This document shows positions 9,300-50,932 of a DNA stretch of 64,000 bases, in pieces; position 1 is the stretch's first letter, and each line of letters begins with the position of its first letter. The stretch spans positions 32,312-96,311 of the forward strand of contig JAJZPB010000001.1 in the NCBI GenBank assembly GCA_021811365.1, in the 5' to 3' direction. The translations under genes were made by a program, and so were the position numbers. The notes beneath the pieces are model-generated. The model did not search any database and was not told the origin of the DNA. It was given only the letters and a program-made list of their open reading frames with translations. The stretch is from a bacterium (GTDB taxonomy: Bacteria > Patescibacteriota > Minisyncoccia > Phycocordibacterales > Phycocordibacteraceae).

Positions 9300-10526
9300 T
9301 CACTTCATGCGGTTGAGTAACGCAGCTTTTGCAGCAAGTTCTCTTTCGTACTGACTTGCATGCCGGTGCGCCAGTTCTCCAGCCGCCGTCGTGTAGTCGT
9401 CGAGGAGCGCTTGCAGGCGTAACGAGAGCTGAGGGTCCCCTTTGCCGACTTTCCTGAGAAGATACCGGATGAAGTCGCATTTATCGTGCCTATTTATGTC
9501 ATCCGGATTGATCCTCACGAACTCGCGAGTGCCAAGCGCTTGCCGAATTATGGCAAACCGCAACGGACGCAGGTCAGGCGTCCCGAAGGTGGTGTCGAGA
9601 AGACGACGCGCTACTCCGTACAGCGTGCCCCGGCTCCTGTTCTCCTGGAGCCAGTTTTTGTCCCCGAGTTCTGCCGCGTGTTCCAAAGTGAACGCGGCTT
9701 GTGTCGCAAGGAGTTCCCGGCTATAGGGCAGGTTCTCCATGCGCGCACACTCCACAACGCGCTTGAAGTAGAAGACGTATGGGGAAGACTGAAGAGGGCG
9801 GGATGCCGTCTCCCTCTGCAGAACCTCCTGGCGCATGAGCGCGTTGCCCCTTTGCTTCCATTCTTCCGGCACAGCTGCGGTCAACAGGAGTGCAAAGGAT
9901 TGGTACACGTACATGTAGCCATTTGCGCCGTCCACAGGAACTGTTGCTTCGAGATGAAGACTCTTGAAGAGACGCTCCAGCTGCTGCCCGTCCTCCCTGT
10001 ATAGCTCCATGAGGAAGATGATCCACGTGTTGTAGACGAAGATGTGGCCATTACGGTGATCGTGCGCGGACAGGTCCGAGCAAGGGGCTTCAGCAAGGAT
10101 CTTGGCGCTGTACACCAAAAGATCCGTCAGAAAGGCACGCAGATGGGGGGTGAGCGCCTCAGCAACGCGTTCCCGATGTTCCGGCACGAGATCCCCAAAG
10201 CAGGTGTGACTCCAAAGACCGGAGTAAACCCAGTGCCCGCACAGAGGTCGGAGGGACCGCTTACCGAATGGGTAATAACTGTCACCTCCGTACCCATAGA
10301 ACGGCACTAAGCTCTGCGCTAGGCCTCGGGCCTTGAAGGCCGGGTTGATGTCAGGGTTTTCGAGCAAGCTGTAGAGGCGATCGTCAACCCCGAGGTACTC
10401 TTCGAACAGAGCGTTCCCCGTCCTTTCAGCTTCTTCCGTCAGGCCGAAGTGGAATCGCAGCAGTTTGCGCACCGCATTGCGATAGCGCAGGGCATTGCGT
10501 TGTTCAGTTGTCTGAGCAAAAGCCAC
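9300..10526 (-). CDS. Hypothetical protein (408 aa)
   Basis: Long coherent ORF, followed on the minus strand by a ggtcttctcg/cgagaagacc hairpin plus T-tract terminator (9228-9275). No recognizable motifs. Confidence 0.55.
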   Translation of the reverse strand: MAFAQTTEQRNALRYRNAVRKLLRFHFGLTEEAERTGNALFEEYLGVDDRLYSLLENPDINPAFKARGLAQSLVPFYGYGGDSYYPFGKRSLRPLCGHWVYSGLWSHTCFGDLVPEHRERVAEALTPHLRAFLTDLLVYSAKILAEAPCSDLSAHDHRNGHIFVYNTWIIFLMELYREDGQQLERLFKSLHLEATVPVDGANGYMYVYQSFALLLTAAVPEEWKQRGNALMRQEVLQRETASRPLQSSPYVFYFKRVVECARMENLPYSRELLATQAAFTLEHAAELGDKNWLQENRSRGTLYGVARRLLDTTFGTPDLRPLRFAIIRQALGTREFVRINPDDINRHDKCDFIRYLLRKVGKGDPQLSLRLQALLDDYTTAAGELAHRHASQYERELAAKAALLNRMK

Positions 10527-10723
10527 AGCACGACTCCTTTGTGTTGTTGTGAAAGGATCTGGGCGGCCTTTTTATGGTAAGTATACGGCCACTTTGGTCC
10601 GGTCAAATTAGTACCAAAAAATACGAAATTGTCAATTAGGCGTATTGGTTCACCTATTCGCGCGCTCCCCTGGGGAGCAGGACCTACTCAGGCAGGGAAG
10701 TGGGAGTATATTAAAGTTCTTTT

Positions 10724-10785
10724 GCTCCGCATGTAGGTCATTGTTCTAACCTAGATTTAGAGGCAAGAAAGGGTATTTCTAAGCA
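10724..10785. repeat. Imperfect direct repeat, left copy (attL-like), flanking the AT-rich island
   Basis: tgctccgcatgtaggtcattgttctaacctaga...aggcaagaaagggtatttc aligns with 13184-13245. Confidence 0.6.
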
Positions 10786-10840
10786 TCAATGGCTCTTATC
10801 TATTTGTTCCAATCATCACGAAAACTGCTACGATGAAAGT

Positions 10841-11350
10841 ATGGGAAAGAAGAACAATTCAGAACATAATCCACTCAAAGAAGCATATGCGCTTTTGCAA
10901 GTATCTTCCTCGAGCGAGCTAGCTCGCGAGTTTATTAAAGAAGACCAAAGGCTCTTAAAAGCACAAATCTGGGATTACAAAAAGTCAGGACTTGTTTTAA
11001 ATATAGTTAAAGAAATAGTTGAATCTGCCATTGATAATGAGTTTACAACACGTGATAAGGACAGTGAGGATGTTTTAAAAACCATTTTATGGTTTTGGTA
11101 CCATCATGCTATCGGATATGCAATCTGGGGTTATAAAGATAAGGCGGAAGCGCTCGAGTTTTCTTCAAAGGCGCTCAAGTACCAGACTTCTGATAATCCA
11201 AATAAAATCACGCGTTTACTCTACCTCTTGGTTCGCGACGAAGAGAAAGACGCGGCTCTTTGGTTGGAAACTATCGTCAATGAACCAGATAAAACTGCTT
11301 CTCACGGAATAATGAAAGAGTATTTGGATGGAAATTTCTTCAAACCCTGA
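10841..11350 (+). CDS. Hypothetical protein (169 aa) encoded in the low-GC island
   Basis: AT-rich codon usage distinct from the surrounding genome. Trp/Tyr-rich helical protein with no assignable family. Confidence 0.55.
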   Translation: MGKKNNSEHNPLKEAYALLQVSSSSELAREFIKEDQRLLKAQIWDYKKSGLVLNIVKEIVESAIDNEFTTRDKDSEDVLKTILWFWYHHAIGYAIWGYKDKAEALEFSSKALKYQTSDNPNKITRLLYLLVRDEEKDAALWLETIVNEPDKTASHGIMKEYLDGNFFKP

Positions 11351-11460
11351 GTTCAATAAGTAAACGCAACACTTCCGCTAATCTAGTTGATATTTCTTAT
11401 TATAACATATAGTATCCCTTTTGGATGGAGGGCCCTCTGTCTATGTAGTGTAAAAGGAGA

Positions 11461-11655
11461 TTGACAGTGGCTAAATCGAACGCTTTAAGGAAGGTGGATG
11501 TCTCAGCTACCGCTCCGCTCATGTTGCGGCGCGTTACTACAAAACCACTAACGATTATTCCCATGATGAACATGACTGTCGTTTCATCGCCTGGCAGACT
11601 TCCTGAAATGAGTGATCAGGTGGGTGACACGACTGCACCAAGGCACGATCGGTAA
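11461..11655 (+). CDS. Small ORF (64 aa), a weak candidate substrate peptide for the adjacent ATP-grasp ligase
   Basis: Convergent with the ATP-grasp gene. The C-terminal half is rich in T/S/D/E (TVVSSPGRLPEMSDQVGDTTAPRHDR). Coding status uncertain. Confidence 0.15.
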   Translation: MTVAKSNALRKVDVSATAPLMLRRVTTKPLTIIPMMNMTVVSSPGRLPEMSDQVGDTTAPRHDR

Positions 11656-11726
11656 GTTCGAATAAGTAGAAATAAGGCCGGAGCAGTGATGCTCCGGCCT
11701 TATATATTTGCTCAAAACTACAGATT

Positions 11727-12770
11727 TCAAAGCGACTTGAGCATGCTTGCGACAGCTTGCGGAATCGATAATTCTGCGTAGTGTTCAATCCACCCCCATT
11801 GCCCGCAAGGGTTTACTTCAAGAAAGACGTATTCTCCATTGGGCATTTCTATGAGATCAATTGCGCCGTAGTTTAATTCAATTTTCCGCATGAAGCGAAG
11901 TAAGTGCTTCTGAACTATAATTGGGAGTTCGACACGAATGTGTTCAACATTGTCGAAGTCGTAGTGACGCCAATCAGTCCTTGTCATTGAACTTGCTTGA
12001 GAGTCAATCCGACATGCCAAGACCTGATTGCCTATTACCATAACCCTGTACTCGTAACGTTTCTCAACGTATTGTTGCGCAAAGAGAGGACATGCTTGTA
12101 TTGCGTCTGGGCTGTTGAGTAACTCCTCATGCGAGAATCGCTCGGAATACAAGAAGTCATTACCAGCCGCGTCCAATTTCATATAGCCAAGCGTTTTTAG
12201 AAGAAGGCCATTTTCTTTTGTGGAAAAGGCCATAACACTTTCTGGATCATTGCTGATGATGGTTTGCGGAGTCTTGAGCCCGCAGCGTTGCGCAATTTGC
12301 TGCTGATACAATTTGTTACTGGAAACGCGGACGATGCTTTCTTTCCGGTTAACCCATTTGCAATCAAGAACAGATACGAACGATAGAAATGCACATCGCG
12401 ATTCATTTTCCGCAAAACGTATTTCCAAGGACGCATCAGCCTCTCGCGCATCATCACTGCTCTCGCGTATATACCACGCAACATCGATGTCTCGGATCTG
12501 AAGACGAGCTTCCACAAGTTCTTGCTCGACATATTTCAGCACATCGATGAACCCAAGAACAGAACCGGAATCATCAAGTGCCATATGTATAACGGCCTGA
12601 TCGAGGATTCGACCCGGGTCAAAGACATAGACACACAGACCTACTTCTATGCATGGAGCAACGAAGGCGTCGTAGTAATAACGCTCACTGAGGCTAGCTA
12701 CAAACAGAACATTTTTCACGAGCGTTCTCCCTTTCATGGATCGATGAATCGTCCAAAGAAAAGGATACAA
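11727..12770 (-). CDS. ATP-grasp family ligase (RimK/MdnC-like)
   Basis: 347 aa. YEYRVMVIGNQVLACRIDSQ...RTDWRHYDFDN...GAIDLIEMPNGEYVFLEVNPCGQWGWI matches the ATP-grasp C-terminal core, including the E-x-N Mg-binding motif. Confidence 0.8.
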   Translation of the reverse strand: MYPFLWTIHRSMKGRTLVKNVLFVASLSERYYYDAFVAPCIEVGLCVYVFDPGRILDQAVIHMALDDSGSVLGFIDVLKYVEQELVEARLQIRDIDVAWYIRESSDDAREADASLEIRFAENESRCAFLSFVSVLDCKWVNRKESIVRVSSNKLYQQQIAQRCGLKTPQTIISNDPESVMAFSTKENGLLLKTLGYMKLDAAGNDFLYSERFSHEELLNSPDAIQACPLFAQQYVEKRYEYRVMVIGNQVLACRIDSQASSMTRTDWRHYDFDNVEHIRVELPIIVQKHLLRFMRKIELNYGAIDLIEMPNGEYVFLEVNPCGQWGWIEHYAELSIPQAVASMLKSL

Positions 12771-13183
12771 CGAATCTAATGTTTTTCAATAGTTCATAGC
12801 TGACGACTTTGAAACTATTAACTGGGCTAAGGAGTATCCCGCGCCGGACTTCACGATACAGCAAATCAAGGCGGGTTCCGGCCGACATTGGTGGAGCGGA
12901 CGCCGCACGCATCGAGGAGATCAAAGGCACCCCCTCAATCTGATTGTGGGAGTGGCCGAAGTATTCCGTAGTGGCAATATAGAGGAGAAAAAGGAGGCTC
13001 TTCCAGAGCCCGGTTAGAACCTAGAACTCAAAGGCAAAAAACTCAGTGTTTCCACCAAGAAAGACCTTGAGGTGACTTCAAAAAGCTTTCTTGCGGTACG
13101 TGCGTAAAATCCGGTGTTTGAACCTAGAAATTGTGAGGCAGATAAAGACGAAACGGAGGCTTTCGCCTCCGTTCGTCCAGTCT

Positions 13184-13245
13184 TGCTCCGCATGTAGGTC
13201 ATTACTCTAACCTAAGGACGCGAGGAAGAATAAGGGTATTTCAGA
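13184..13245. repeat. Imperfect direct repeat, right copy (attR-like), flanking the AT-rich island
   Basis: tgctccgcatgtaggtcattactctaacctaagga..gaggaagaataagggtatttc aligns with 10724-10785. Confidence 0.6.
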
Positions 13246-13327
13246 GTCTTCGAGCCACGGGTCGGCCTGTTGAGACACTCGCGCCCCAGAGGACCACAGC
13301 AGGCCACAAGAGAGGTATGATGGGAGC

Positions 13328-14044
13328 ATGTCTCCAGACGAGATCGGGAAAGCGGCAATCGACTTTGCCAAGAAAAACAAGAATAAGATCGCCAATGAGC
13401 TCACCGACCTCAGCCGCTTCGTACCGGATGATCATCCGATTTCTGTGTTTATGGCGGGGTCACCGGGTGCGGGTAAGACCGAGTTCTCAAAGGAACTTCT
13501 CGGCATATTGGAGGCAGATGACCAACGTAAGGTGGTGCGTATTGATGGCGATGATATACGCGAGCGTATGCCGGGGTATGTCGGCAACAATTCGGCCTTG
13601 TTTCAAGGCGCAATTTCCATAGTAGTTGAGAAGATTCACGACCTCGTACTCGACAAGAAACAGAGCTTTATTCTCGATGGAACGTTCTCGAAATACGATA
13701 AGGCCGCGGACAACATTCGGCGTTCATTGCGCAAGAACCGAATCGTCTTTATTTTCTACGTCTACCAAACGCCCCATACCGCGTGGCGGTTTACTCAAGC
13801 CCGCGAGCGCCTCGAGGGGAGAAACATACCAAAGTCTGCCTTTATCGAGCAGTTCTGCGGGGCTAAGGAAACAGTCGAGCGGCTACATCGAGAGTTCACG
13901 GATAAAATAGTACTCTTCTTGGTGAAGAAAGACTTCAGTACGAGCGCAACTGAGGAGGTGGTAAAAATGATTGATCCAGCCACGTCGATTGACTCATATA
14001 TCGGCGAGCGATACACTAAAGAAGAACTTGAGAAATCACTATGA
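13328..14044 (+). CDS. Zeta-toxin family kinase (PezT/zeta-like, P-loop)
   Basis: 238 aa. The Walker A motif VFMAGSPGAGKTEF and the VVRIDGDDIRE motif are characteristic of zeta toxin UNAG kinases. Confidence 0.75.
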   Translation: MSPDEIGKAAIDFAKKNKNKIANELTDLSRFVPDDHPISVFMAGSPGAGKTEFSKELLGILEADDQRKVVRIDGDDIRERMPGYVGNNSALFQGAISIVVEKIHDLVLDKKQSFILDGTFSKYDKAADNIRRSLRKNRIVFIFYVYQTPHTAWRFTQARERLEGRNIPKSAFIEQFCGAKETVERLHREFTDKIVLFLVKKDFSTSATEEVVKMIDPATSIDSYIGERYTKEELEKSL

Positions 14045-14253
14045 AATGGCTTACAAAAATACTACGAAATGACGAACCTGAGGCGACAACTGTCGCTCGC
14101 ACGCCGTACATGAGCGAGTATAACGGCCTTTCGGATTTTCTTCGCAATGCTCCACAGCAAGAAAAGATTGATGTTTTTACAGAAGCTGCAAAACGTGCAA
14201 GCGAAGATCAAAGACGAACGCTTGAGAGGGCCAGAGTTCTGCACTCCAGCTAA
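14041..14253 (+). CDS. Small hypothetical protein (70 aa) overlapping the zeta-toxin stop by 4 nt (ATGA)
   Basis: Translational coupling to the zeta-like gene. Acidic/helical sequence. Possible cognate antitoxin in a non-canonical (downstream) position. Confidence 0.35.
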   Translation: MKWLTKILRNDEPEATTVARTPYMSEYNGLSDFLRNAPQQEKIDVFTEAAKRASEDQRRTLERARVLHSS

Positions 14254-14326: not shown

Positions 14327-14398
14327 ATAGGCTAGCTCCGCGGGTAGGATTCGAACCTACGACCAATCGATTAACAGTCGACCGCTCTACCACTGAGC
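14327..14398 (-). tRNA. tRNA-Asn (anticodon GTT)
   Basis: The reverse complement folds as a cloverleaf: acceptor tccgcgg/ccgcgga, D-arm gctc-agtggta-gagc, anticodon stem gtcga/tcgat with loop ctGTTaa, and T-arm gtagg-ttcgaat-cctac. CCA is not encoded. Confidence 0.85.
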
Positions 14399-14531
14399 TA
14401 CCGCGGAATGCGTCTTTGCCAACAAGAGAATGCAAGAGGCCCTTCTCGGCACGCCTCTCAAAGAGGCATGGGCATTGTAGCGGAAAAAGTTAGCAACGCA
14501 AAGGGCGGAAAAGGTTTGGTATAGTGCGCGT

Positions 14532-36743: not shown

Positions 36744-38519
36744 CTAGAGGCCGCGAACCCCGAGCTTTCGATATTCTTCGGACGAAAGGTCGAGGAAATT
36801 CTGGATTTGACTTTCAGAGTAGGATTGGTCCAGGTCTGATAGAGTCACTAGCTGAAAAGATGAAAGCGGGACAGGAGCTTTTTGCAAGAAAAATGAAAGA
36901 TGACCACGCACTACGCTTTCGTTTCCGGCCAGGTAAAAAAGGGCAGGGTACGACCGGCTCAGATACAGCCAAAACGGGTTGAAGGGCAGACTTTGTTTCT
37001 GCATCATCGCGTTAATGCCCGCAATAATTGAGTTCATGGCAATGGCCGTCTGGATTTGTTGATCGAAAAGAGCAGACTGGTCGTGATATAGCGCGATTCG
37101 CCGTTCAAGTGCGTACACGGTGTCCGGAGATGTCTGTCTCGCAAGAGACTCTTCTCCTGTTGCTGATAGGAGATTAGAAATGGTGCCTACATATTGCGAA
37201 ATAGCGTCTTCGGATATAAAAGGCGCGTTCGTGATTTCACTTTCCTCTGTGGCAGCGCGCTTTATCAGCGGACTCCTTTTTTGGAAAGCTTTGCCTAAAA
37301 AAAGCGGCCGTTGAGCAATGCTGTCGGCAAGTCTATAGAGCGATGCGACGCGTGCAGATTCTATGCCCGAGTCGGGGCATTCATAGAAGTTCGACACCCT
37401 TTGCCCAAGGAAAGATAGTCCGTGAGCTTGAAGGTCGGTATAAAAAGCGCTCGACGTTTTCTTGCGCAGGTCGTAAAAATACATGTTGTTAATAGATTCG
37501 AATTGAAAATCTGGCACAGGTGAATGTGCATCTCGGATCGTCCATAGGTACATATAAAAAGGACCTGTGGTAGGCACGCAATCACTTTTTGTAAGTGCCA
37601 CCACGCCGAGGCCCATAAATTGTTCTCCAAGGACGGTGGCGTTTGTTTTTTCCATCGATGTGAGTACCGATTCCACGTGTGTGACTGGTGGTGGTAAGGC
37701 GGCAAGAGTTGTCGAAACTCCTGAAAGGGAACTGGTTCGCGGGAGCAGGCTTTGCAGGGGGGTGCATGCAGTGTTGTTTCCCTGTAGACAGCTAAATCGT
37801 GCAAGCGCTTTTTGTTGGTCGTCTTCCGCACTAGCAGCCAGAGCTGATAAGCGCGCACCGAAAACGCCGCTCGTGGTGTACCCATTAGGGAACGTATATT
37901 CGTTGTTGGCGATGCTTTTACTGCCAAGCCCGTCGAGAGCGGAGGCGGTTTCGTTAAGTGCTGATTGATAGTGCGTCAGCGCAGTTTGCAGCGACGTATT
38001 GTAGAGGAGCGCGCCACTGTAGCTTGGGTGCGTGAGTAGTGCGATACGGTTTTTCTCAAGCTGTGGAAGCGTCTCGAGGAAGGCGATAGGATAAAAACTA
38101 TTCGCGAGTACCGTACGAATGCTGCTGGGGTAGGCCGCCGAGAGCGAATCGACGGATTGCCTGAGGGCCGCTATTGCGAGTGTCAACTTCGCAGGGTCCG
38201 TCCCCCCGAGAGCCATGATGGGATCAAGCCGATTTGCAATTGTAAAGTATGCAATCCGAAAAACCTTAGAAACGGTATTTGGGTTGGTGACTACTTTTCC
38301 GCCTGTTGCCACGACGCCATGACTGACTGAGTAGGTGGTGCTCCCGATGGTAATATCGGGCACAATAAACTGAGAAAATTGCCGACTAAACGCCGAGGAA
38401 TTTGAAGCGAATACCCCCTCTGCTTGAGCGTAATAAACAAGCAGACCTATTCCTATAAAGAGAAAAGCAGAAAGTAAGAAGAATAAAGTACCCCGATGTC
38501 TGTGGATAAGGGATTGCAT
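36744..38519 (-). CDS. Large N-anchored extracellular hypothetical protein (591 aa; start at internal ATG)
   Basis: Start chosen at MQSLIHRHRGTLFFLLSAFLFIGIGLLVYYAQA, a signal-anchor. Ser/Thr/Ala-rich, with no enzymatic motifs. Convergent with murF across the palindrome ttgctgggcccagcaa. Confidence 0.55.
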   Translation of the reverse strand: MQSLIHRHRGTLFFLLSAFLFIGIGLLVYYAQAEGVFASNSSAFSRQFSQFIVPDITIGSTTYSVSHGVVATGGKVVTNPNTVSKVFRIAYFTIANRLDPIMALGGTDPAKLTLAIAALRQSVDSLSAAYPSSIRTVLANSFYPIAFLETLPQLEKNRIALLTHPSYSGALLYNTSLQTALTHYQSALNETASALDGLGSKSIANNEYTFPNGYTTSGVFGARLSALAASAEDDQQKALARFSCLQGNNTACTPLQSLLPRTSSLSGVSTTLAALPPPVTHVESVLTSMEKTNATVLGEQFMGLGVVALTKSDCVPTTGPFYMYLWTIRDAHSPVPDFQFESINNMYFYDLRKKTSSAFYTDLQAHGLSFLGQRVSNFYECPDSGIESARVASLYRLADSIAQRPLFLGKAFQKRSPLIKRAATEESEITNAPFISEDAISQYVGTISNLLSATGEESLARQTSPDTVYALERRIALYHDQSALFDQQIQTAIAMNSIIAGINAMMQKQSLPFNPFWLYLSRSYPALFYLAGNESVVRGHLSFFLQKAPVPLSSFQLVTLSDLDQSYSESQIQNFLDLSSEEYRKLGVRGL

Positions 38520-38832
38520 GGGTAACCGCAATGAGAGTACAGTATTCCTATCAGATGTGTAAGCAGTATACTGCATTAAATTACTCCCACCATGCATCCA
38601 CGTAAATTTCCTTGGGTTCAAAAGTCGGCACTGTTCATGGCTGTGATAGCTTTTGGATCGGCGGTAGCAAGTGTCTTCGTGGTCGTTCATGAAAAGCCAG
38701 GAAGCGAGGTTGCGGTGGCCCAGGCGGCACACGCATGCGTCGCACCAATCGGGAATACGTCTCCAACGAACGTACGCACGGCAAATCAAAGAAAACAGCT
38801 CTTCGTGAGCTGCGCAGGGTTTTTAAACTGAA

Positions 38833-39951
38833 TCAAATAGCAGGGTCTCTTTTTAGTACGACCCTCTTCTTCCCATTCGAGGCAATAGAAGCTACCTTTC
38901 TCGCAACGAGCGGTACAAATATGCCGGCCTCTATGAGCTGACTCAGCGTACGAGTCTTCGTTACAAAAAGCGAATCAGCAAGATACTTTCCAATCTCCGT
39001 CTCAGTCGACGCGGCACTGCGGGGTACAAAATCAAAAACAGCTTTTCCAGATAGTTTTCCGTCGTGGAGAATTTCTCCAACGCGGAGCTGATACTCAACG
39101 AGTGTACCCGCGAGAGGCTCAAGAACTCGCTCGAGCTCTTCTCGCAAGAAAAGAGCTCCGAGAATCGGTACTATGTCAAAATCTTTGCGTCCGTAGAGTA
39201 GTAACGTAGGCTGTTTCCCACAAGGGCAAGGGTTTGTATCGAGCTTACCTAGGTCGCCAGTGCGGTAGTTTTCGAGTTCAGTCGTCGTAGCAATGATTTC
39301 TCCTACACCTTCCTCGTCTGGTTCTGCGATTGCTAAAACCGTCTCCGAGTCCTCGAGAAGGTGGTAGCGTTCCTCATTTTCTGTCTCCAAGCACTGAGCA
39401 GTGGGATAAATAACCTCCGAAAGGGTGTACCCGCCTTGTATGGTCGCGTCAGGAAATAATGCTCGAAGGTGTTTTTTTTGCGTCGAAGTGCAGAGCTCGG
39501 CCATGGTCTGTATCAGACGTATATTTTTTAGTACGGAGGAACTAGTTTTAAAAAGCGTCTCGCCGAAACGCAGCGCTCGAGACGGTGTGGCGCGTATTGT
39601 GTGCGGTTCATACTCGTTCATAATAAAAGGCAGATTCTTCTCTTCAAGGTCGCGTTCGTCAAGTGTTAGGTACATTTCTATTGAGCTTGATGTAAGCGCT
39701 CGGCGAATAACATGTAGTGCGGCGAGGTTATTTAGCGGTAAACGAACATGCCTACCGAGATTTGCAATCCATATGTCATGTGTTTCCCCGCCTGGTTTGT
39801 CAGGCCGAAACAACGCGACGAGCGTTGGAAGGCCGGTAGTCGTTCCGCTCGAGACGGCCATGTGGATGTGCTGAGTAGACGGATCTCCGGGCGTATATCG
39901 CTCGATGCCGTAAATGCGTTTCGCCAGGTCCTTTTTTGTTAAGTAGTGCAT
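38833..39951 (-). CDS. PaaK/F390-synthetase-like adenylate-forming enzyme (ANL superfamily), last gene of the ycaO operon
   Basis: The AMP-binding P-loop SSGTTTGLP, the YRTGDLGKLD motif, and a CPCG Zn-knuckle typical of PaaK/CapK-like ligases. Confidence 0.75.
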   Translation of the reverse strand: MHYLTKKDLAKRIYGIERYTPGDPSTQHIHMAVSSGTTTGLPTLVALFRPDKPGGETHDIWIANLGRHVRLPLNNLAALHVIRRALTSSSIEMYLTLDERDLEEKNLPFIMNEYEPHTIRATPSRALRFGETLFKTSSSVLKNIRLIQTMAELCTSTQKKHLRALFPDATIQGGYTLSEVIYPTAQCLETENEERYHLLEDSETVLAIAEPDEEGVGEIIATTTELENYRTGDLGKLDTNPCPCGKQPTLLLYGRKDFDIVPILGALFLREELERVLEPLAGTLVEYQLRVGEILHDGKLSGKAVFDFVPRSAASTETEIGKYLADSLFVTKTRTLSQLIEAGIFVPLVARKVASIASNGKKRVVLKRDPAI

Positions 39952-39958
39952 ATTCTTC

Positions 39959-40762
39959 CTATGAAGTAGACGCGAGTTCGAATGCGCGAGTCCCTTTGCA
40001 GGAGCAGTCCTTTTCGAGAAATCGCACCGTGAGTCCTGGACGGTAGTTAATAATTGGCGTCGGCAGCATGTGCGTGCGCGTGACCGTCAAGTCAGTGGTG
40101 GTATCAACAACGTAGTTTTCCGATTCGTGGAAAACGATCTTTTGCCCGGCAAGTGCTACGGGGCAGGCGTACGCGATTCCTCCCGTTTCCGGCAGTCCGA
40201 GCACGAGGTGTATCTGCGTGGAAGGGAAAGTGCGTATAAGCAAAGGAAGGTTAAAAGTGATATCGACAACAGTTACGTAAGCAGTTTTGGTTGTGTCGTA
40301 GTGACGCGCCAAGGCCGTAGCCGTTTTCTCTATAGTTGCCGAGTCTGCGACGATTGAGTCCACTTCGTACCGCTGTGCAAGCATACCGGTAATGTCCTCG
40401 TCTTTGTCGGCGATGATTGGCAAGATATTTCTGGTTGTACACCACAGTGCCTTCTCAAGACATTCGTGGATAGAAGCAAAGGCTACGAGAGGTCGATTGC
40501 CAAGATCCCCATACTCTTCTCGTCCAATATCCGATAGGTGTCGACCAATTAAAAAAGGCCTCTCGTTGTAGTAAGCGACTTTCGCTAGAAGGTTGTCTGT
40601 ACGATAGAGCCGACGAGCGAAGGGAGTATTTGCGTATTGTTCTCGTTTTAGCGGTGGGAGCTCATTACGGGGAGTCCGAGAGTTCTCAGTATTCCAGACA
40701 GAACGATAAAAGTCCGACGCAGTCTCTTCAAAGACAAGCCTTTCAATCGGTGTAGGACTCAT
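39959..40762 (-). CDS. Degenerate PaaK-like protein lacking the AMP P-loop
   Basis: Its C-terminal INYRPGLTVRF...DCSCKGT parallels NYRTGDL...CPCG of the neighbouring ligases, but there is no SSGTTG motif. 7-nt gap to the next gene. Confidence 0.35.
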   Translation of the reverse strand: MSPTPIERLVFEETASDFYRSVWNTENSRTPRNELPPLKREQYANTPFARRLYRTDNLLAKVAYYNERPFLIGRHLSDIGREEYGDLGNRPLVAFASIHECLEKALWCTTRNILPIIADKDEDITGMLAQRYEVDSIVADSATIEKTATALARHYDTTKTAYVTVVDITFNLPLLIRTFPSTQIHLVLGLPETGGIAYACPVALAGQKIVFHESENYVVDTTTDLTVTRTHMLPTPIINYRPGLTVRFLEKDCSCKGTRAFELASTS

Positions 40763-40773
40763 AAAGCAGCCTT

Positions 40774-41607
40774 CTAACTAAGTTTTGCCGGAGCGTGCAA
40801 CCACTGAATTATCGAGTGCCGATTTTTTCGATTCGTCTGGAACGTATGCATGGAACGAAGGCTGGTCTGAAAAGCGAAAAGAGTGTTGTTTATGGGTGGG
40901 ACGACTTTCAGTCGTGTGGCGCGGTCCGCAGAATATACGCCAGTCTCGCCACCATCGCCCTCGTGCCACCCGTCATTCAGTAGATAGAAAAGTATCGCAA
41001 TAGCCTGGAATGGTGCGGCTCCTTGCTTTGAGCTGCGTGTCAGGTCAGTATAGCTTTGTGAAATGGAGGTGAGTGGCTTATACCCGATAACGCCATTCGA
41101 CAAGGGGACAGAGATCGCCGGGGACCGTTCAATATGGTCGTGGTGTACCGACCCGGTCTTATCGCCGGCTGGATGGTAATGAAATACCACCTTCGTTTCA
41201 GTAGTCGTACATTGATTGAATAACTTTGAGAAGAAAAGATTCCACTCAATGCTGTAAAAAATGCTGAGCGGATGCCTCGGATCTACGGTCGGTTGTGGCG
41301 AGTGCGTATAGCCGTCATACGCTATATCAAACGCATGAAAGCCGTCGAGAGTGTAGTCTCGCTTGTCGTGTAAGCCTCCTCGCATTGCTTCAGTGAAAAC
41401 AGAACAAAGGTTTTCATATGCCGTGGGCTTAAAAAAGTCAGGGATGACAACGTGCGGATATGGATCAGACATGATGCACACGTCGTATTTCCGCACGTTC
41501 GTAACCTCATCCAAATCAACGTTTTCGCGCGAGTGCAGGATTGACTTATGTACCTTGATTTGTGCCTTTCGGAAGCGGTCGTATAAGGTCATAGACGCAG
41601 TATACAA
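40774..41607 (-). CDS. Putative 2-oxoglutarate/Fe(II)-dependent oxygenase
   Basis: An HxD triad element in VHHDH, a distal His (SMHTF) ~90 aa later, and RHS (RxS) 10 aa after it. The pattern fits the 2OG-Fe(II) oxygenase facial triad plus 2OG-binding Arg. Confidence 0.5.
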   Translation of the reverse strand: MYTASMTLYDRFRKAQIKVHKSILHSRENVDLDEVTNVRKYDVCIMSDPYPHVVIPDFFKPTAYENLCSVFTEAMRGGLHDKRDYTLDGFHAFDIAYDGYTHSPQPTVDPRHPLSIFYSIEWNLFFSKLFNQCTTTETKVVFHYHPAGDKTGSVHHDHIERSPAISVPLSNGVIGYKPLTSISQSYTDLTRSSKQGAAPFQAIAILFYLLNDGWHEGDGGETGVYSADRATRLKVVPPINNTLFAFQTSLRSMHTFQTNRKNRHSIIQWLHAPAKLS

Positions 41608-41629
41608 TGTCTATTCAGACTGTAAGTAT

Positions 41630-42343
41630 CTAACAAAATTTGATAGAGTACACCGCTTGTTCGTTATTCGGGTCGATTGCGAGCATGTCTGAGACGATAC
41701 TGTCTTTGAAACCGGCCATAGGCCGTGCATTTATATTGTGCGCCGCCGCTAGTAGTAGCATGTTTTGCGCCACGTGACCTGCCTCAAGTAGGGCAAGGTT
41801 GTACGCAAAGTCGCCATATTTAGTAGCACTACGTTCCCACACAGCGGTGAAGACGATAGCAGCAGCAGCGGGACTAACCGCCTCGTCTTCAGGATAGAAA
41901 AATAGATCATTCACGCCGGCATGCACTGGCAGTTCCCAAAGACGCTCGAGGGCGTGAGTTTTCGGGTGGTAATGAAAGACGCTTGGAGAAAAGCTGTCAA
42001 CCTGACCGAACAGGTACGTTTCGATAGGATAGAGCGCTCCGCCGGAAGGGTAGGGACGCGTTTTGTCAGCGCGCATGCGTGCCGCCTGGAAAAGAAAACT
42101 CACGTCATTAAGTGAAAAAGATGTAAGGGGCGCATGTTTATTTTCCGAAGAGCGCAGAGAAAGTGCTTCGACAAGGCTCGCTGTGTTACTCACCGCACTT
42201 TCTGGAAGCGTAATCCGTTCCATGCGCGGATACTCTTTATGTTGCCAACGTATTGCGTCCTGCACAAGCGTCGCTGCTCCTCGACCAACTAGTAGTGCGT
42301 GGCGCAGGTCTGTATGTAGGCGAGAAATAAGGTGGCGTCTCAT
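41630..42343 (-). CDS. SagB-type (McbC-like) FMN-dependent dehydrogenase, nitroreductase fold
   Basis: The hallmark RPYPSGGALYPIETY motif of SagB/McbC azoline dehydrogenases. Start chosen 4 nt after the ycaO stop; the track ORF extends to 42406. Confidence 0.8.
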   Translation of the reverse strand: MRRHLISRLHTDLRHALLVGRGAATLVQDAIRWQHKEYPRMERITLPESAVSNTASLVEALSLRSSENKHAPLTSFSLNDVSFLFQAARMRADKTRPYPSGGALYPIETYLFGQVDSFSPSVFHYHPKTHALERLWELPVHAGVNDLFFYPEDEAVSPAAAAIVFTAVWERSATKYGDFAYNLALLEAGHVAQNMLLLAAAHNINARPMAGFKDSIVSDMLAIDPNNEQAVYSIKFC

Positions 42344-42347
42344 AGAG

Positions 42348-43835
42348 CTACGCAAATGGATGGGGCTCTTCACTGGAGTGCGCCTCCTTTTCAACAAGAT
42401 AGCCAAATTGCTTAGGTATTTCGTTCACGCGAAGGCCATCTACGGGACGATTTTTTTCCTTCAAGTAAAGCGGCTGTAGTTCAGGTATGATGACTCGTTC
42501 TAGATGCCATGGAGTTGGATTGCCTTCGGACTTCGTCAATGAAACAGAAACGCACTCATAGCCTTTCTCTCGACACCACGAGACAATGCGCGCAAGATGT
42601 TCTTCGTCAGTATCGGATTCCCAGGATTCGGCCGTAAGGTTTACGGTCGGCCCGGCTGTCAAAAAAGCAAGACCTTTAGCCCTATTGTGTTTTGTCCAGT
42701 AGCGGAGACGGTCAAAGTGGCCAATGTCGGCAATTTGCTCTTGAACTTCCTTGGGTGTTTCGTTTTCCATTGCGCGGATATCAGGTCGGATGCGTAGCGC
42801 TTCAAGTAGAGCGCCTTCTGCTGCTTGCGCAGGATCGCGATGCGCTTTTAGGCCGAGTGACATATTTGGCGTCATTCCGGATTCGTCTTCCAAGACTACA
42901 GCTAGCGCGTATGTCGGTGCGTCGGTCAGCATGCGAATCACCTGTGGTATCAGCCGGTAGCGCACGCAAAGCTTCATGAGTCGCGAAAGAGAAGCACTGC
43001 GGAGAGCAAGTTGTTCAACGTTTATACGAGGCAAGATGAGTCGATTGAGCCAGAGAATCATGTACGCATCGCGTTCGATAGCCTCAAGAGCTCCTTGGAG
43101 TATGGCCGCTTCCTTCGTCTTTCCACCCGCGCAGCCATTTGTATTTTGTTCCCGCAAAAGCGGCTCATTGAGCGAAGTTAGTACGCCTGGGTTCCCACTC
43201 ACGAGTTGCGCGGGAACCCATAACGGGCGTTTTGAGATGAGTGAGTCACCCCGAATCCACAGGAATTTTTGTTCCGGAGAGGACTTTTGCGGGAGTCCTA
43301 CAAGACGTTCGAGATCTAGCGCGGCAACCCTCTTGCGCCGCATACTCTCAGCCGTCGCTTTTTTTTGAGCGGCAAAGTAGTCGACCCGACTTGCCCACAC
43401 ATGCCGTTCCACTGCCTCGGCTAGCGCTGTAGTGAGTGCTACTCGCTCGTTGTCGAAAGAAATTCCCGAGGCTATAAGGTTCTCACGAACGGCGTAATCA
43501 CGAACACAAGAAGCCGACCAGATGTAGAGCGGCGGTTCATCTGGTAAGGACTCAGTGAGCTGTATTGTTTGGATGACGCCCGCAGCATGCAACGTCTCCG
43601 CAACCGAAAAAAGATCCAAAAGTTCCGGTTTTTGGAAGGGGATAACAGCTCTGTCATACACAACTCGAGCATGTAGACGACGCTCGAGAAAACGAATGAA
43701 TGAGGAAACAGCCTCCTTTTGGATGCTTGATACACCAGACCTACTCCATATTTCCTCGAATGGTATAGCGTCGAACATTTCATTTTTTATGCTAGCAGTG
43801 TTTAACGACGAGTCAATGTACAAAAAAGTACACAA
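42348..43835 (-). CDS. ycaO: YcaO-domain protein (ATP-dependent cyclodehydratase family)
   Basis: The three YcaO signatures occur in order: ALAEAVERHVW, NTNGCAGG (SNGxAAG-like) and ALEAIERDAYMILW (ATP/Mg-binding ExxERD). Confidence 0.85.
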   Translation of the reverse strand: MCTFLYIDSSLNTASIKNEMFDAIPFEEIWSRSGVSSIQKEAVSSFIRFLERRLHARVVYDRAVIPFQKPELLDLFSVAETLHAAGVIQTIQLTESLPDEPPLYIWSASCVRDYAVRENLIASGISFDNERVALTTALAEAVERHVWASRVDYFAAQKKATAESMRRKRVAALDLERLVGLPQKSSPEQKFLWIRGDSLISKRPLWVPAQLVSGNPGVLTSLNEPLLREQNTNGCAGGKTKEAAILQGALEAIERDAYMILWLNRLILPRINVEQLALRSASLSRLMKLCVRYRLIPQVIRMLTDAPTYALAVVLEDESGMTPNMSLGLKAHRDPAQAAEGALLEALRIRPDIRAMENETPKEVQEQIADIGHFDRLRYWTKHNRAKGLAFLTAGPTVNLTAESWESDTDEEHLARIVSWCREKGYECVSVSLTKSEGNPTPWHLERVIIPELQPLYLKEKNRPVDGLRVNEIPKQFGYLVEKEAHSSEEPHPFA

Positions 43836-43931
43836 TAGCGGTTATGAAGGTTATCCACAAAACTAACAGACACAGCGCGTCGCCAGACAGGCAGTCTGCT
43901 CTATACTAAGAATTAGTTATAATATTATTTT

Positions 43932-44222
43932 ATGGCAACGATTTTAAAAAAGAATATGCGAGCTGGGCATTCATTTCTCAAGGGGACAGGTTCGCTACTG
44001 CTAGCCGTAGTTGGATTTTTCATGATTTTTTTTGGACCCGGAACGGTGTCGACGGGGAAGTCCAACACGTTCTTGAGCATGATGGACTTCAACGTAGCTC
44101 ATGCGGATACGAATACCTGCGGCCAAACATGCTATACCACCTACGTTAAAGGTGGTGGCTCCTCTTCAAGCTATTGCACGTCGACTTGCACCGTTGGTGG
44201 TTCATCGTGCGCCTGTAGTTAA
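43932..44222 (+). CDS. Candidate RiPP precursor peptide with a Cys/Ser/Thr/Gly-rich C-terminal core
   Basis: 96-aa ORF divergent from ycaO across an AT-rich 96-bp promoter region (tatact, tataat). The C-terminus is TNTCGQTCYTTYVKGGGSSSSYCTSTCTVGGSSCACS. The N-terminus carries a hydrophobic signal/anchor-like stretch. Confidence 0.6.
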   Translation: MATILKKNMRAGHSFLKGTGSLLLAVVGFFMIFFGPGTVSTGKSNTFLSMMDFNVAHADTNTCGQTCYTTYVKGGGSSSSYCTSTCTVGGSSCACS

Positions 44223-44255
44223 CGGATAAAGCGTTGTTTATGTTACATCAACACA

Positions 44256-45347
44256 ATGAGCGGCGTATATAATGGCAAGCGTATAATTTATGCTTCCGCA
44301 ATTATCGTTGCGGTGGCGTTGGTGATTGCGGCTGGAATTTTATTGTACGTACGTTACGAGCATCGTATACGGTTCAATCATCTTATTTTGCAGGCCGAGT
44401 CTTCTTATCATGAATATAACTATGATACTGCGATTACGGCTGCGTCAGATGCTATTTCATTTGCTCCAACAAGGGCTGACGCCGACCTAGCCAAATACTA
44501 TGTTGCCGCCTCGCTTTATAATAGAGGGAACAGTAAAGACACCGTCACTAGCATAACGCTTCTTAAGTCAATTATCGCTGACCCAGCAGCAAGCGCACAG
44601 CTCAAGAGTTCTGCCTATATCAGGCTCGGTTTGCTGTACTCCCCATCAGGAGTTAATAGTTCGCTCAACAAGCTGGTATTCAGCGGACCTCCGTACAGCG
44701 ATTATCTGGCGAGCGCCAAGGGGAACATGGGTAAAGCGACGCTATCGCTGTATGAGAAGGCAAATGAATTGTATCCATCGGCAGCGGCAAATTACGCCAT
44801 TGCAGCATCGCAAGCAATGGGGATTTACACGCAAGGGATAAACGTCAAGGACCCAACCCAGCTGCAGGTTGCCCAAGCGGTCCAAAGGACGGTTGCTAAC
44901 GGCGACGCGCTATTGGCGGCTGGATCGTCGACCCTCGCGCAACTGCCGCAACTTTACATGTTACGTTCTTTTGCACTCAGCACGGCTTCGTATTATGTAC
45001 CCGAAATATCCCCGCAAATTGTTGATAGTTCCTACGAACATGCGTTATCGCTCATGAACGCAGCCAGTACGAGTATATCCTACCTAAAGCTGACTACCGT
45101 CATGCTTAACTTGACTTATGCAGCCTCCCTAGTCGAAAGAGAACCCGGAGCCCAAAATACAAAAATTAGCAGCCTGCTTTCAGACTTTTTAAATGAGACG
45201 AACGCATTTCCGACTCTTCTCCCGCAAAATGTACTCGCGATTCGCGCTTATAAGCCAGGAACCCCTATTCTCGACGCGATTCCAAAACTTGCAAAACTCT
45301 ATCCACCCTTTGCTGCGTACTTAGTTCAAATAGGCTGGAATAAATAA
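44256..45347 (+). CDS. N-anchored membrane protein with helical repeat (TPR-like) ectodomain
   Basis: A TM helix IIYASAIIVAVALVIAAGILLYV, then a 330-aa Ala/Leu/Tyr-rich helical domain. Immediately downstream of the precursor gene. Confidence 0.5.
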   Translation: MSGVYNGKRIIYASAIIVAVALVIAAGILLYVRYEHRIRFNHLILQAESSYHEYNYDTAITAASDAISFAPTRADADLAKYYVAASLYNRGNSKDTVTSITLLKSIIADPAASAQLKSSAYIRLGLLYSPSGVNSSLNKLVFSGPPYSDYLASAKGNMGKATLSLYEKANELYPSAAANYAIAASQAMGIYTQGINVKDPTQLQVAQAVQRTVANGDALLAAGSSTLAQLPQLYMLRSFALSTASYYVPEISPQIVDSSYEHALSLMNAASTSISYLKLTTVMLNLTYAASLVEREPGAQNTKISSLLSDFLNETNAFPTLLPQNVLAIRAYKPGTPILDAIPKLAKLYPPFAAYLVQIGWNK

Positions 45348-45370
45348 AACGCGAGCAGTTTGTTCTTATG

Positions 45371-46816
45371 CTACAGGAGAGGAACAAACATTCTCATTTT
45401 TCCCTCAGATCCCGCTCCCCATAGTGCTGGGTATTCAAATATGATGGATAGTTCGGTACCGATGTGTTTATAAAGTTCATTAGAAAAGCGACTCTCAAAA
45501 GATTGTTTATCACCGTGCCGTAACTTAACTCGAATTACCAACTGGCCAAGCGTCGGTTGCATGATTTGATAAAACTCGATTTCGTCAAAAAAAAGTGGAA
45601 GCAGAAAGCGATTTATCTGGCGAAAAGGCGCTATTTTTCCGCTCGGGAAGCGAATGAAGTCCATCTGTTTTCCTGAGAAGGCAAGAAGAGGCAGCGTGCG
45701 GCCGCAAGGACACTTTTCAGGTACGATTCGACCACGATCACCGATGTGATACCTGAGAAGCGGAAGGGCGCGATTCTCAAGGGAGGTTAGTGTGATCAGT
45801 CCCTCTTCGCCGTCGGGAAGGCGTCTACCTTGTTCATCAGTTATTTCTAGAAACAGGCGCTCGGCGTGAACGTGGTAATGATGCCGCAGCTTTGGACACT
45901 CGATAGCTATCTGCCCGACCTCGGTACTTCCGTAGGTTGCTACCACAGGACAACCGAGGACTTTTTCCGCATACTCACGCGAATCGTCGTCAAGACGCTG
46001 GCCTCCGGCTACGACTAGTTGAAATGGTAGTTTTTGACGCGACTCAGCGAGCTTTTTTGCAAATAGGAGAAGATTTGTTGGGTAAATGTACAATACTCGA
46101 TACCGTCCCGTCGTTATCTGGTCAAGTAGATTTTGAAATGCCTGATCAGCATTAGTTTCAACAGGACTCCAGTTACAGGCCACAGACGGCTGTGCCGTGG
46201 TTGGTCCGGTAAAGCTAGCTATGAATGGACGTCTCCCATCTCTTTTTGGTGAAATGCCGTGCCATACGAGGATGCGATGAAAATATGAGGCGGACTCGAC
46301 GAAGCTTGTATTTCTGTCGCCGCCCCACTCGAACGGTGCGCCGGTCGTACCAGAGGTGCGAAACAACACAAGACGTTCCCGGTCTTTAAATGCCGGCGCA
46401 AGAAGTTCCGCTCGAGAAGTATTCGTAAACGACTGTTTGGAAACTGGGGGTAAGCGCTCCAAAACAGACAGAGCCGTCAGTGACTCCCTTTGTATTCCTG
46501 CGCCCTCCAGCCGGTCTCGCCACCAGGGAATGGTTTCAGCAATTCGTAGTATCTTTTTGAGCCGAAGCAGTTGCAGCTCGTGCATGAGAGACGGGTCGGC
46601 GTATTCGGTTTCGGGCAAAAGGTTTCGATAAGCATTGGTGACGAATTCGTGCCGATACCCATACAGGGAGCGGTAGGGTTGCAAAAATTCCGCTACTGCC
46701 CGCACCACCATGCGTTTTTTTTCGTTTCGGGTGGGGTTAAAAATTTTACGTTTCATCTGCGACTTCGCGTAAGTGTAATACCAGAAACGTGTCGTGTACA
46801 ATGTAAGCACCTGCAC
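45371..46816 (-). CDS. PaaK/F390-synthetase-like adenylate-forming enzyme (second copy)
   Basis: The P-loop RTSGTTGAPFE, YGSTE, YHIGDRGRI and CPCGR motifs. The true start may be an internal Met (M21 or M36). Confidence 0.75.
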   Translation of the reverse strand: MQVLTLYTTRFWYYTYAKSQMKRKIFNPTRNEKKRMVVRAVAEFLQPYRSLYGYRHEFVTNAYRNLLPETEYADPSLMHELQLLRLKKILRIAETIPWWRDRLEGAGIQRESLTALSVLERLPPVSKQSFTNTSRAELLAPAFKDRERLVLFRTSGTTGAPFEWGGDRNTSFVESASYFHRILVWHGISPKRDGRRPFIASFTGPTTAQPSVACNWSPVETNADQAFQNLLDQITTGRYRVLYIYPTNLLLFAKKLAESRQKLPFQLVVAGGQRLDDDSREYAEKVLGCPVVATYGSTEVGQIAIECPKLRHHYHVHAERLFLEITDEQGRRLPDGEEGLITLTSLENRALPLLRYHIGDRGRIVPEKCPCGRTLPLLAFSGKQMDFIRFPSGKIAPFRQINRFLLPLFFDEIEFYQIMQPTLGQLVIRVKLRHGDKQSFESRFSNELYKHIGTELSIIFEYPALWGAGSEGKMRMFVPLL

Positions 46817-46818
46817 CT

Positions 46819-47613: not shown

Positions 47614-47689
47614 TGGCGGTTACACAGAAAGTCCTCCTTATCAGTTAACGGCTACCTCTGAAGACTAGGTGCTATAGTTAAAGCGCATT

Positions 47690-48529: not shown

Positions 48530-48643
48530 TTTTTGCATAGTGGCGAGCGGGATGGCCCCCCCACAGTCGTCCTAAAAGTTCTCCACACAGGTGACTAGTA
48601 CAAAAGAACACCATCAATCCTTTACAGTATACTGAGCACACGT

Positions 48644-50704: not shown

Positions 50705-50780
50705 AATCAAAATAGTGCATTTTAATTGCCGGGGAAGTGTATAGCGATTCTGCGGCTGGTTTGCTATAACTACAAACGAA

Positions 50781-50852
50781 GGCCCTATCGTCTAACGGCT
50801 AGGACAGCGCCCTCTCACGGCGCAAATCGGGGTTCGATCCCCCGTGGGGTCA
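50781..50852 (+). tRNA. tRNA-Glu (anticodon CTC)
   Basis: The cloverleaf parallels E. coli tRNA-Glu: acceptor ggcccta/tggggtc, D-arm gtc-taacggcta-ggac, anticodon stem gcgcc/ggcgc with loop ctCTCac, and T-arm cgggg-ttcgatc-ccccg. No encoded CCA. Confidence 0.75.
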
Positions 50853-50932
50853 CAGGTAGAGGTTTGTCATCAGTAAATTTGCCGTATAGCATTATAAGAA
50901 AGGGCTCCGCACGTTGCGGAGCCCGTGCGCTA

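Follow-up and report, generated by a model that had tools for sequence, protein, structure and literature searches.

Members of the candidate phyla radiation (CPR, Patescibacteria) have tiny genomes with few known secondary-metabolite genes, and graspetides are among the few classes of ribosomally synthesized peptides with post-translational modifications (RiPPs) predicted in them. The present analysis concerns a graspetide (omega-ester RiPP) gene cassette found in a 64-kb stretch of DNA from a patescibacterial contig (the whole stretch analysed is referred to as the window). The cassette lies in a segment at positions 10722–13246 that is bounded by two direct repeats (DR1 and DR2) and also contains the 3′ remainder (stump) of a gene for a large serine recombinase (integrase). 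The homologues of the locally encoded proteins are almost exclusively from metagenome-assembled genomes of Parcubacteria/Paceibacterota/Minisyncoccota. To the right of the segment are a gene for a zeta-toxin-family kinase, a gene for a 70-amino-acid (aa) protein and the tRNA-Asn gene, followed by grx, prx, fmt, def and murA. The features of the locus are as follows.

10722–10785, plus strand: DR1, the distal direct repeat resembling an attachment (att) site, with the core TTGCTCCGCATGTAGGTCATT followed by TCTAACCTA, a variable stretch of ~14 nt and AAGGGTATTTC.
10841–11350, plus strand: gene for a 169-aa all-helical protein, a conserved partner gene assigned to no Pfam or NCBIfam family; invariant ILWFWYHHAxGYAIW.
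11387–11415, plus strand: sigma-70-like promoter, TTGATA-17-TAGTAT, upstream of the precursor gene (consensus match only).
11467–11655, plus strand: graspetide precursor, 62 aa, with a GTG start behind AAGGAG, the leader ...APLMLRRVTTKP... and the core NMTVVSSPGRLPEMSDQVGDTTAPRHDR.
11672–11703, both strands: bidirectional terminator hairpin (14-bp stem, a T-rich tail on either strand) separating the precursor gene from the ATP-grasp gene convergent with it.
11727–12719, minus strand: ATP-grasp peptide macrocyclase of the MdnB/MdnC/CdnC type, 330 aa, assigned by profile and PDB matches.
12762–12789, minus strand: sigma-70-like promoter of the ATP-grasp gene, TTGAAA-16-TATCCT, at the right-hand limit of the cassette homology to other genomes.
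12793–13197, plus strand: 3′ stump of a large serine recombinase gene, a pseudogene of ~135 codons in one frame.
13183–13246, plus strand: DR2, the att-like direct repeat nearer to tRNA-Asn, the initial 15 nt of which are the integrase C-terminus codons LLRM*.
13328–14253, plus strand: zeta-toxin-family kinase of 238 aa (13328–14044) and overlapping 70-aa gene (14041–14253), between DR2 and tRNA-Asn and outside the repeat-bounded segment.
14335–14407, minus strand: tRNA-Asn (GTT), with its 3′ end toward the segment, syntenic with the tRNA-Asn that is abutted by intact integrase genes in relatives.

The cassette (10821–12789) has a guanine plus cytosine (GC) content of 43.2%, as compared with a window mean of 54.4% (standard deviation [SD] 3.8% for 2-kb sliding windows). 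It is the lowest-GC 2-kb stretch of the window, ~2.9 SD under the mean, and 0.5% of the 2-kb sliding windows are equally low. The GC content at third codon positions is 0.38–0.49 in the cassette genes versus 0.59–0.68 in fmt, def, murA and prx. The right flank, which comprises the zeta-like gene, the 70-aa gene, tRNA-Asn and grx, is still at 49–51% GC to ~15 kb, and the GC step is therefore sharp on the left side only.

The cassette is 1.97 kb long and consists of two convergent units that share one common terminator. The ATP-grasp gene begins with a GTG codon preceded by a ribosome-binding site, and its product has the same length (330 aa) as its homologues. In a search against NCBIfam, the best models were TIGR04187 (1.4e-55), MvdC (1.2e-50) and MvdD (3.6e-48), as against 7e-14 for rimK_fam, all of these scores being under the curated cut-offs of the equivalog or subfamily models. 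The RimK/GshB-type models gave 51.8 bits for rimK_fam (cut-off 143) and 21.6 bits for glut_syn (cut-off 299), and the sole Pfam match was to RimK (7.5e-5), barely over its cut-off. Among known structures, the best match was MdnB (5IG8, 2e-32), followed by CdnC (7MGV), AMdnB (7M4S) and MdnC (5IG9); all five PDB matches, which include an MvdD-like protein, are graspetide-type ligases.

The precursor gene is kept in every related locus retrieved. Across these loci the encoded peptide follows the conservation pattern ...APLMLRRVTxKP... in the leader and NMTVVSSPGRxPEMSDQxxDxTAPRHD in the core. The 169-aa protein shows 60–82% identity to its counterparts in 5 other cassette copies and is a member of a small family (133 representative clusters); a structure model made from the single sequence was unusable (predicted local distance difference test score of 44). 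Two of its distant homologues, P0341 (487 aa) and P0348 (301 aa), carry additional fused regions that weakly match SprT-like (zincin peptidase) or ParB_N domains, and this gives a faint hint that the 169-aa domain may work with a leader peptidase.

Much of what the original prediction had proposed for this segment was borne out. The AT-rich island is real by sliding-window composition, the 169-aa gene (10841–11350, plus strand) and the ATP-grasp gene (11727–12719, minus strand) are both present, and the assignment of the ligase to the graspetide type and not to RimK is upheld by the profile comparison and the PDB matches. The suggested foreign origin agrees with the deviant composition and with the occurrence of the cassette in several unrelated genomic contexts. 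As for the two candidate precursors put forward, the open reading frame (ORF) at 11461–11655 (plus strand) encodes the conserved peptide that accompanies every cassette copy; the one at 13014–13202 (minus strand) is antisense to the integrase pseudogene and is not conserved.

The chemistry suggested by these genes would begin with binding of the conserved leader (PLMLRR...KP) by the ATP-grasp enzyme. The ATP-driven joining of core Thr/Ser side chains (MTVVSS) to downstream Asp/Glu residues (PEMSDQxxD) would then yield a bicyclic lactone peptide, with the 169-aa protein acting as an accessory factor. No ABC transporter, kinase-like ATPase or second integrase was found in the 64-kb window. Since both the usual histidine-kinase-like ATPase and the ABC transporter of some other copies are absent here, leader removal and export would have to be supplied from elsewhere. 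The formation of macrolactones on the precursor is predicted from the sequences of the ligase and its putative substrate.

Graspetide clusters of CPR bacteria were described by Makarova et al. (2022, Biol Direct 17:7; PMC8939145). Their Branch 1 is characterized by a P-hydrophobic-hydrophobic motif in the leader, by the core signature TxxxTx(6-10)Dx(1-4)D and by association with TPR-type and uncharacterised proteins; the overall table of that study lists a histidine-kinase-like ATPase family among those found most often beside graspetide ligases (PMC8939145). The window ligase is 53–59% identical to P0028, P0064 and P0071, which are labelled Branch_1 in the supplementary table, and the window precursor aligns over its full length with clusters 1871 and 4012 (leader TPLLLRR..KP, core HMTVVTTxG..PEMxDQxxD) (PMC8939145). 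The Branch 1 signature also fits the window core, with Ser replacing the second Thr. The placement in Branch 1 is based on the identity to the listed ligases and on precursor homology, not on a phylogenetic tree. In most relatives, genes for a histidine-kinase-like ATPase and for a helical (TPR-type) accessory protein are associated with the system, whereas the window copy is without the kinase-like ATPase and also without the ABC transporter seen beside the L003, L012 and L013 copies (related loci from other genomes are referred to by L numbers). By BLASTP, the 169-aa accessory protein is not significantly similar to the TPR protein (227 aa) encoded at the published locus; in addition, the window core has Ser-Ser where the published one has Thr-Thr, and its C-terminal tail is longer (APRHDR). 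No mobile-element context was described for CPR graspetides in that study (Makarova et al., 2022; PMC8939145). Judged by its sequence, the cassette joins a family that had already been predicted and that is not experimentally characterised.

With MdnB/MdnC, CdnC and AMdnB (5IG8, 5IG9, 7MGV, 7M4S), the window ligase shares the superfamily, the overall length and the ATP-grasp core with DWR and the C-terminal EVNPxGQW. It differs from the MdnB/MdnC-type maturases in its low identity (E ~1e-32) and in scores under the NCBIfam equivalog cut-offs, and the leader motif is PLMLRR instead of the PFFARFL of the microviridin type. In contrast to microviridin-type systems, the window has one ligase, no acetyltransferase or dedicated transporter, and a precursor gene on the opposite strand.

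Homology to other genomes is confined to 10821–12789, that is, from ~20 nt before the start codon of the 169-aa gene to the −35-like hexamer of the ligase promoter. Nucleotide identity is 77–83% to L003, L006, L009 and L012, and 66–71% in patches to L013. The flanks of the cassette differ in every case (L003/L012, L006/L007, L009–L011, L013 and L114/L115), and at least five flank types were distinguished among all the copies retrieved, namely ABC transporter/kinase, ThiF/ClpP, HIT/YkuD, methyltransferase/NUDIX and that of the window itself. The GC content of the cassette is 0.43–0.46 regardless of that of the host locus (0.44–0.54). This constant composition between differing flanks is read as the mark of a compact cassette that may have been repeatedly moved horizontally or rearranged.

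Some features of the other copies are described here in their own right. A kinase-like ATPase gene adjoins the cassette in most relatives, and an ABC transporter gene is nearby in L003, L012 and L013. Several cassettes carry 3′-end stumps of the histidine-kinase-like ATPase gene: a direct repeat of 106 nt brackets the cassette in L003 (9819–9924 and 11867–11972; 88% identical) and in L012 (7295–7411), L006 (~11880–12000) has the stump alone, upstream of the 169-aa gene, and L009 (9687–10328) has the stump and a 167-aa gene in inverted orientation. The idea that all cassette copies are bracketed by target-site-like repeats was accordingly rejected, as the 106-nt repeats of L003 and L012 are the 3′ stump of the kinase-like gene and the full gene. 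The kinase gene is directly upstream of the ligase gene in L109, L114 and L115, which is probably the older gene order. A recurring set of genes for a large unknown protein, ThiF, a nitroreductase and a kinase-like ATPase accompanies ATP-grasp genes in L016 (12925–17424) and L003 (11857–17215). The L016 set is ~2 kb from the syntenic tRNA-Asn, and its ATP-grasp protein is a different one, only 27% identical.

The two repeats that bracket the cassette and the integrase stump are identical over their initial 21 nt (TTGCTCCGCATGTAGGTCATT; short form of the core, TTGCTCCGCATGTAGGTC) and ~82% identical across 61 nt, with the TCTAACCTA and AAGGGTATTTC blocks also in common. Their similarity breaks off sharply at both ends. 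When up to 3 mismatches were allowed, the 21-mer occurred in the window only at the DR1 and DR2 sites, and it was found in none of 100 shuffles of the window. The bracketing repeats of the original prediction are thus real (10722–10785 and 13183–13246), and a check for copies of a dispersed repeat revealed only DR1 and DR2 in the window and none in GTDB representative genomes. An exact 21-mer scan of JGI metagenomes gave a single match, at 459–479 of L008, an unrelated 1-kb contig, between small zinc-finger-like ORFs; this copy could be due to chance in a collection that large, by a rough estimate, or could be another site of the same kind. A scan of IMG/VR with a 16-nt core gave 3 matches, which were dismissed as chance, being in high-GC coding DNA with dissimilar flanks.

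A related element is located 60–97 nt upstream of the zeta orthologue in L098–L100. It retains 16 of 17 core bases as well as the AACCTAA and ATAAGG..AT.TTCA blocks, and is conserved better than the nearby non-coding DNA. The left context of the single repeat copy upstream of zeta in L098 is different from that in the window.

The integrase pseudogene occupies the 393-nt interval from the cassette to DR2; it is interrupted by in-frame stops at 13015–13017 and 13105–13107 and ends with a TAG (13195–13197) inside DR2. Integrase homology was demonstrated only for 12955–13191, or ~79 codons of the pseudogene frame, the translation of which matches residues 454–532 of the 533-residue L022 integrase (tblastx and tblastn). 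Pairwise blastp gave 1.4e-8 to the L022 protein and 2e-5 to the 568-aa homologue of L037, and a three-way alignment contained the common blocks F..G.l.kKk, GSNLxL..K.S, FEP and the terminal LLR[G/M]*. Its Pfam domains (Resolvase, Recombinase and Zn_ribbon_recom) identify the L022 protein as a large serine recombinase. In the window, the catalytic and zinc-ribbon domains are deleted; since only a C-terminal part with two stops is left, the segment is a remnant and not a functional integrative-element member. Searches of IMG/VR for relatives of the integrase, made with the single protein and with a two-sequence alignment, found none.

This stump alters two points of the original prediction, which had stated that no integrase is present and had described the reiterated AACCTAGA-type motifs as iteron-like. 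The motifs at 13013–13026 and 13116–13129 (the exact 9-mer is found nowhere else in the window) are the pseudogene codons G*NLEL and VFEPRN, the positions of which are conserved in the intact L022 and L037 integrases, and there is no rep gene. The proposal of a decayed integrative element remains the best reading of the repeats.

Relatives at family to order rank keep the gene order def-fmt-prx-grx-tRNA-Asn, and their synteny with the window stops at grx or tRNA-Asn. In none of the syntenic relatives was a zeta gene or the cassette found beyond grx/tRNA-Asn, and the DNA 3′ of tRNA-Asn thus appears to be variable in this group. Two of these neighbourhoods, L022 and L037, contain the intact integrase gene, whose 3′ end overlaps the 3′ end of the convergent tRNA-Asn gene. 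The last integrase codons and stop are on the complementary strand of the acceptor stem and read ...TTG CTC CGC GGG TAG (LLRG*). The window pseudogene ends in TTG CTC CGC ATG TAG, which is the initial 15 nt of DR2. When the L022 and L037 junctions were aligned with DR1 and DR2, they had (T)CTTGCTCCGC..GTAGG...TTCnAACCTA in common; the repeats read GCTCCGC[AT]GTAGG[TCATT..]TTCTAACCTA, as compared with GCTCCGC[GG]GTAGG-ATTCGAACCTA in the tRNA. An additional TT in front of GCTCC is common to the repeats and the integrase-occupied tRNAs and is missing from the window's own tRNA-Asn. The pattern GCTCCGCNNGTAGG occurs exactly 3 times in the window, in DR1, in DR2 and at the tRNA-Asn 3′ end, on the same strand and within 3.7 kb. 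In another relative, L021, a second copy of the last ~20 nt of tRNA-Asn follows 171 nt downstream and has an integrase-type ...GCGGAGCAAA junction; this looks like an att scar of the kind expected for such elements. Full pseudo-tRNAs were considered for the repeats and rejected, because there was no Rfam match and no similarity to tRNA-Asn past the acceptor and T-arm. The putative att assignment is carried only by the anchored 12/14 match and the integrase junction. The distal repeat of the intact L022 and L037 elements was not located within the locus DNA examined.

Two further observations concern tRNA-Asn in these relatives. No tRNA was detected by ARAGORN in L021 (13440–13760) or L030 (11200–11320), yet both hold the 3′ part of tRNA-Asn, preceded by what looks like an intron in the anticodon loop. 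L037 has, at 11666–11698, a degenerate half of tRNA-Asn from the D-arm to the anticodon, 68 nt upstream of the real, integrase-overlapped tRNA-Asn.

The segment at 10722–13246 is best explained, with a probability of roughly 0.6, as the fixed remnant of an integrative element that now holds little beyond the graspetide cassette. This explanation builds on direct observations of the two repeats and the base composition, of what the genes encode, of conservation in cassette and precursor, and of the integrase stump with the geometry of its junction. The source would be a family of Parcubacteria elements with a large serine recombinase, the integrase 3′ end of which overlaps the att site at the 3′ end of tRNA-Asn, and DR1 and DR2 would be the att-derived ends, each with a degenerate version of the acceptor and T-arm of tRNA-Asn. 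The repeats are thus most likely what is left of the att sites of a dead integrative element of the tRNA-Asn type; they would have arisen by integrase-mediated recombination as attL and attR, and the cassette would have travelled as element cargo. As the cassette fills nearly all the space between DR1 and the stump, the geometry allows both cargo and a later arrival in the wreck of the element.

The likeness to the L022 and L037 elements includes the homologous integrase C-terminus LLR[G/M]* on the att core, in the same orientation to the tRNA-like core, and the chromosomal neighbourhood def-fmt-prx-grx-tRNA-Asn; the window segment is also flanked by direct repeats, as in tRNA-targeting integrative elements. 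Unlike in L022 and L037, the window has only a dead stump of the integrase, the element is reduced to 2.5 kb, and the proximal repeat is a degenerate copy 1.1 kb from the tRNA, with the zeta-like kinase and the 70-aa gene between them.

Several observations weigh against a remnant of an integrative element. DR1 and DR2 are far closer to each other than to tRNA-Asn and share derived changes, namely GG to AT in the acceptor part and 5 nt inserted in the T-loop. No match to the repeats was obtained with the Rfam tRNA model even at E ≤ 10, and in a generic Smith-Waterman scan the score of repeat versus tRNA was unexceptional and the tRNA was not ranked first. Serine integrases need no long homology, and the 62-nt repeat exceeds a minimal att site. 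The exact 21-mer is missing from GTDB representative genomes, neither an empty site nor an intact element carrying the variant repeat core was found, and the 408-aa ORF of the left flank (9300–10526, minus strand; host-like GC of 0.57) has no homologue but itself among 5.8 billion proteins. Because no integrase or tRNA is near any other cassette copy, transport of the cassette by this element is weakly supported. The L098–L100 element is without cassette or integrase alongside, so DR2 may predate the cassette insertion, and a single integration need not have produced DR1 and DR2 directly. If DR2 is the older, the duplication could go back to an integrase that acted at a secondary site, or to homologous recombination across an old scar. 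On the side of the product, the NCBIfam scores of the ligase under their cut-offs count against the proposal, and we know of no CPR graspetide that has been chemically characterised.

One unlikely alternative is that an old att scar upstream of zeta was reused, in that cassette DNA with a copy of the scar entered by a RecA-type (Campbell-type) crossover, with no integrase at that step, and that the stump is neighbouring debris. This scenario would account for the L098–L100 element, which is upstream of zeta with neither cassette nor integrase, and for the lack of any link between the cassette and an integrase elsewhere. It also accords with the different, ~106-nt repeat pair (3′ end of the histidine-kinase-like gene) that brackets the L003 and L012 cassettes and points to rearrangement through ordinary repeats, and Patescibacteria are generally thought to take up DNA. 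However, the stump is contiguous and in frame with DR2, in the geometry of the intact elements, which suits an element end better than chance debris, and the donor homology that such a crossover needs was not seen, as the cassette copies in other genomes are without a copy of the repeat.

It is rather improbable that the repeats are cis-regulatory modules (operator- or promoter-associated) of two divergent gene pairs (408 aa/169 aa and ATP-grasp/zeta), by which one regulator would govern both cassette and kinase. Both repeats are indeed in divergent intergenic regions, with the repeat end 56–82 nt before the ATG of the plus-strand genes, and the L098–L100 element, at its similar distance from the zeta orthologue, is conserved beyond the surrounding non-coding DNA. 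Equally close zeta orthologues in L095, L101 and L102–L104 are nevertheless without the element, which precedes neither the 169-aa gene nor the ATP-grasp gene in any other cassette copy. Recognisable −10 elements are beside the start codons and outside the repeats, no sigma-70-like site is within the repeats, and the spacing of the repeat sub-blocks varies by 13 nt among copies; moreover, at its left end the repeat is made up of the last in-frame codons of the integrase pseudogene. The narrower idea that the repeat is the zeta promoter was rejected likewise, given the −10-like elements by the ATG outside the repeat and the three other zeta lineages without the element.

A more speculative proposal, to which little credence is given, is that the variant core TTGCTCCGCATGTAGGTCATT is a live “pseudo-tRNA-Asn” att site recognised by trans-acting large serine recombinases in Parcubacteria populations, so that integrase-less cassettes, including the graspetide kit and possibly the zeta-kinase/70-aa pair, would be shuttled in an integron-like manner. 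Such a site would explain the near-unchanged core upstream of zeta in a lineage with only 72% coding-DNA identity, the exact core copy in the unrelated L008 contig and the cassette GC content of 43–46% in hosts of 44–54% GC. Finally, a housekeeping RimK/GshB-type amino-acid ligase, with a small ORF that is no substrate, in ordinary genome sequence with a chance repeat is highly improbable, since the RimK Pfam match (7.5e-5) and the sub-cut-off graspetide scores that speak for it are outweighed by graspetide models 40 orders of magnitude better than rimK_fam, by PDB matches that are all graspetide maturases, by a precursor that accompanies the ligase in every context and matches published precursors, and by shuffles that yield no match to the repeat.

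Other parts of the window contain additional genes of note. The zeta kinase and the 66–70-aa gene that overlaps it by 4 nt on the downstream side form a recurrent pair in many Parcubacteria (2984 matches, nearly all of 237–239 aa), and no antitoxin gene was seen upstream of the pair, unlike in the classical epsilon/zeta or PezAT systems. The genes to the left of the 408-aa ORF (~3–9 kb) are mostly small and without Pfam families. A second lower-GC block (~0.50) extends over 37000–50853 and ends at tRNA-Glu (50781–50853). It encodes a YcaO cyclodehydratase (42348–43835, minus strand), a nitroreductase/SagB-like protein (41630–42406, minus strand), a 2OG-Fe(II) oxygenase, an AMP-binding enzyme and a Stf0 sulfotransferase, and has the appearance of a second gene cluster of RiPP type (azoline-like) within this small genome.

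Two known kinds of system come together at this locus, a CPR graspetide cassette of Branch 1 and a probable decayed serine-integrase element directed at a tRNA. For CPR graspetides, roles in host interaction and competition have been suggested. What the present locus adds is a minimal transferable Branch 1 unit, a three-gene cassette of 2 kb that appears to move among Parcubacteria genomes with its own base composition. In at least one genome the cassette is embedded in what is left of a probable tRNA-Asn-directed serine-integrase element, which offers a concrete though unproven route of transfer. With a precursor, one ligase and one accessory gene, the locus is also compact enough to serve as a target for expressing a CPR graspetide heterologously.

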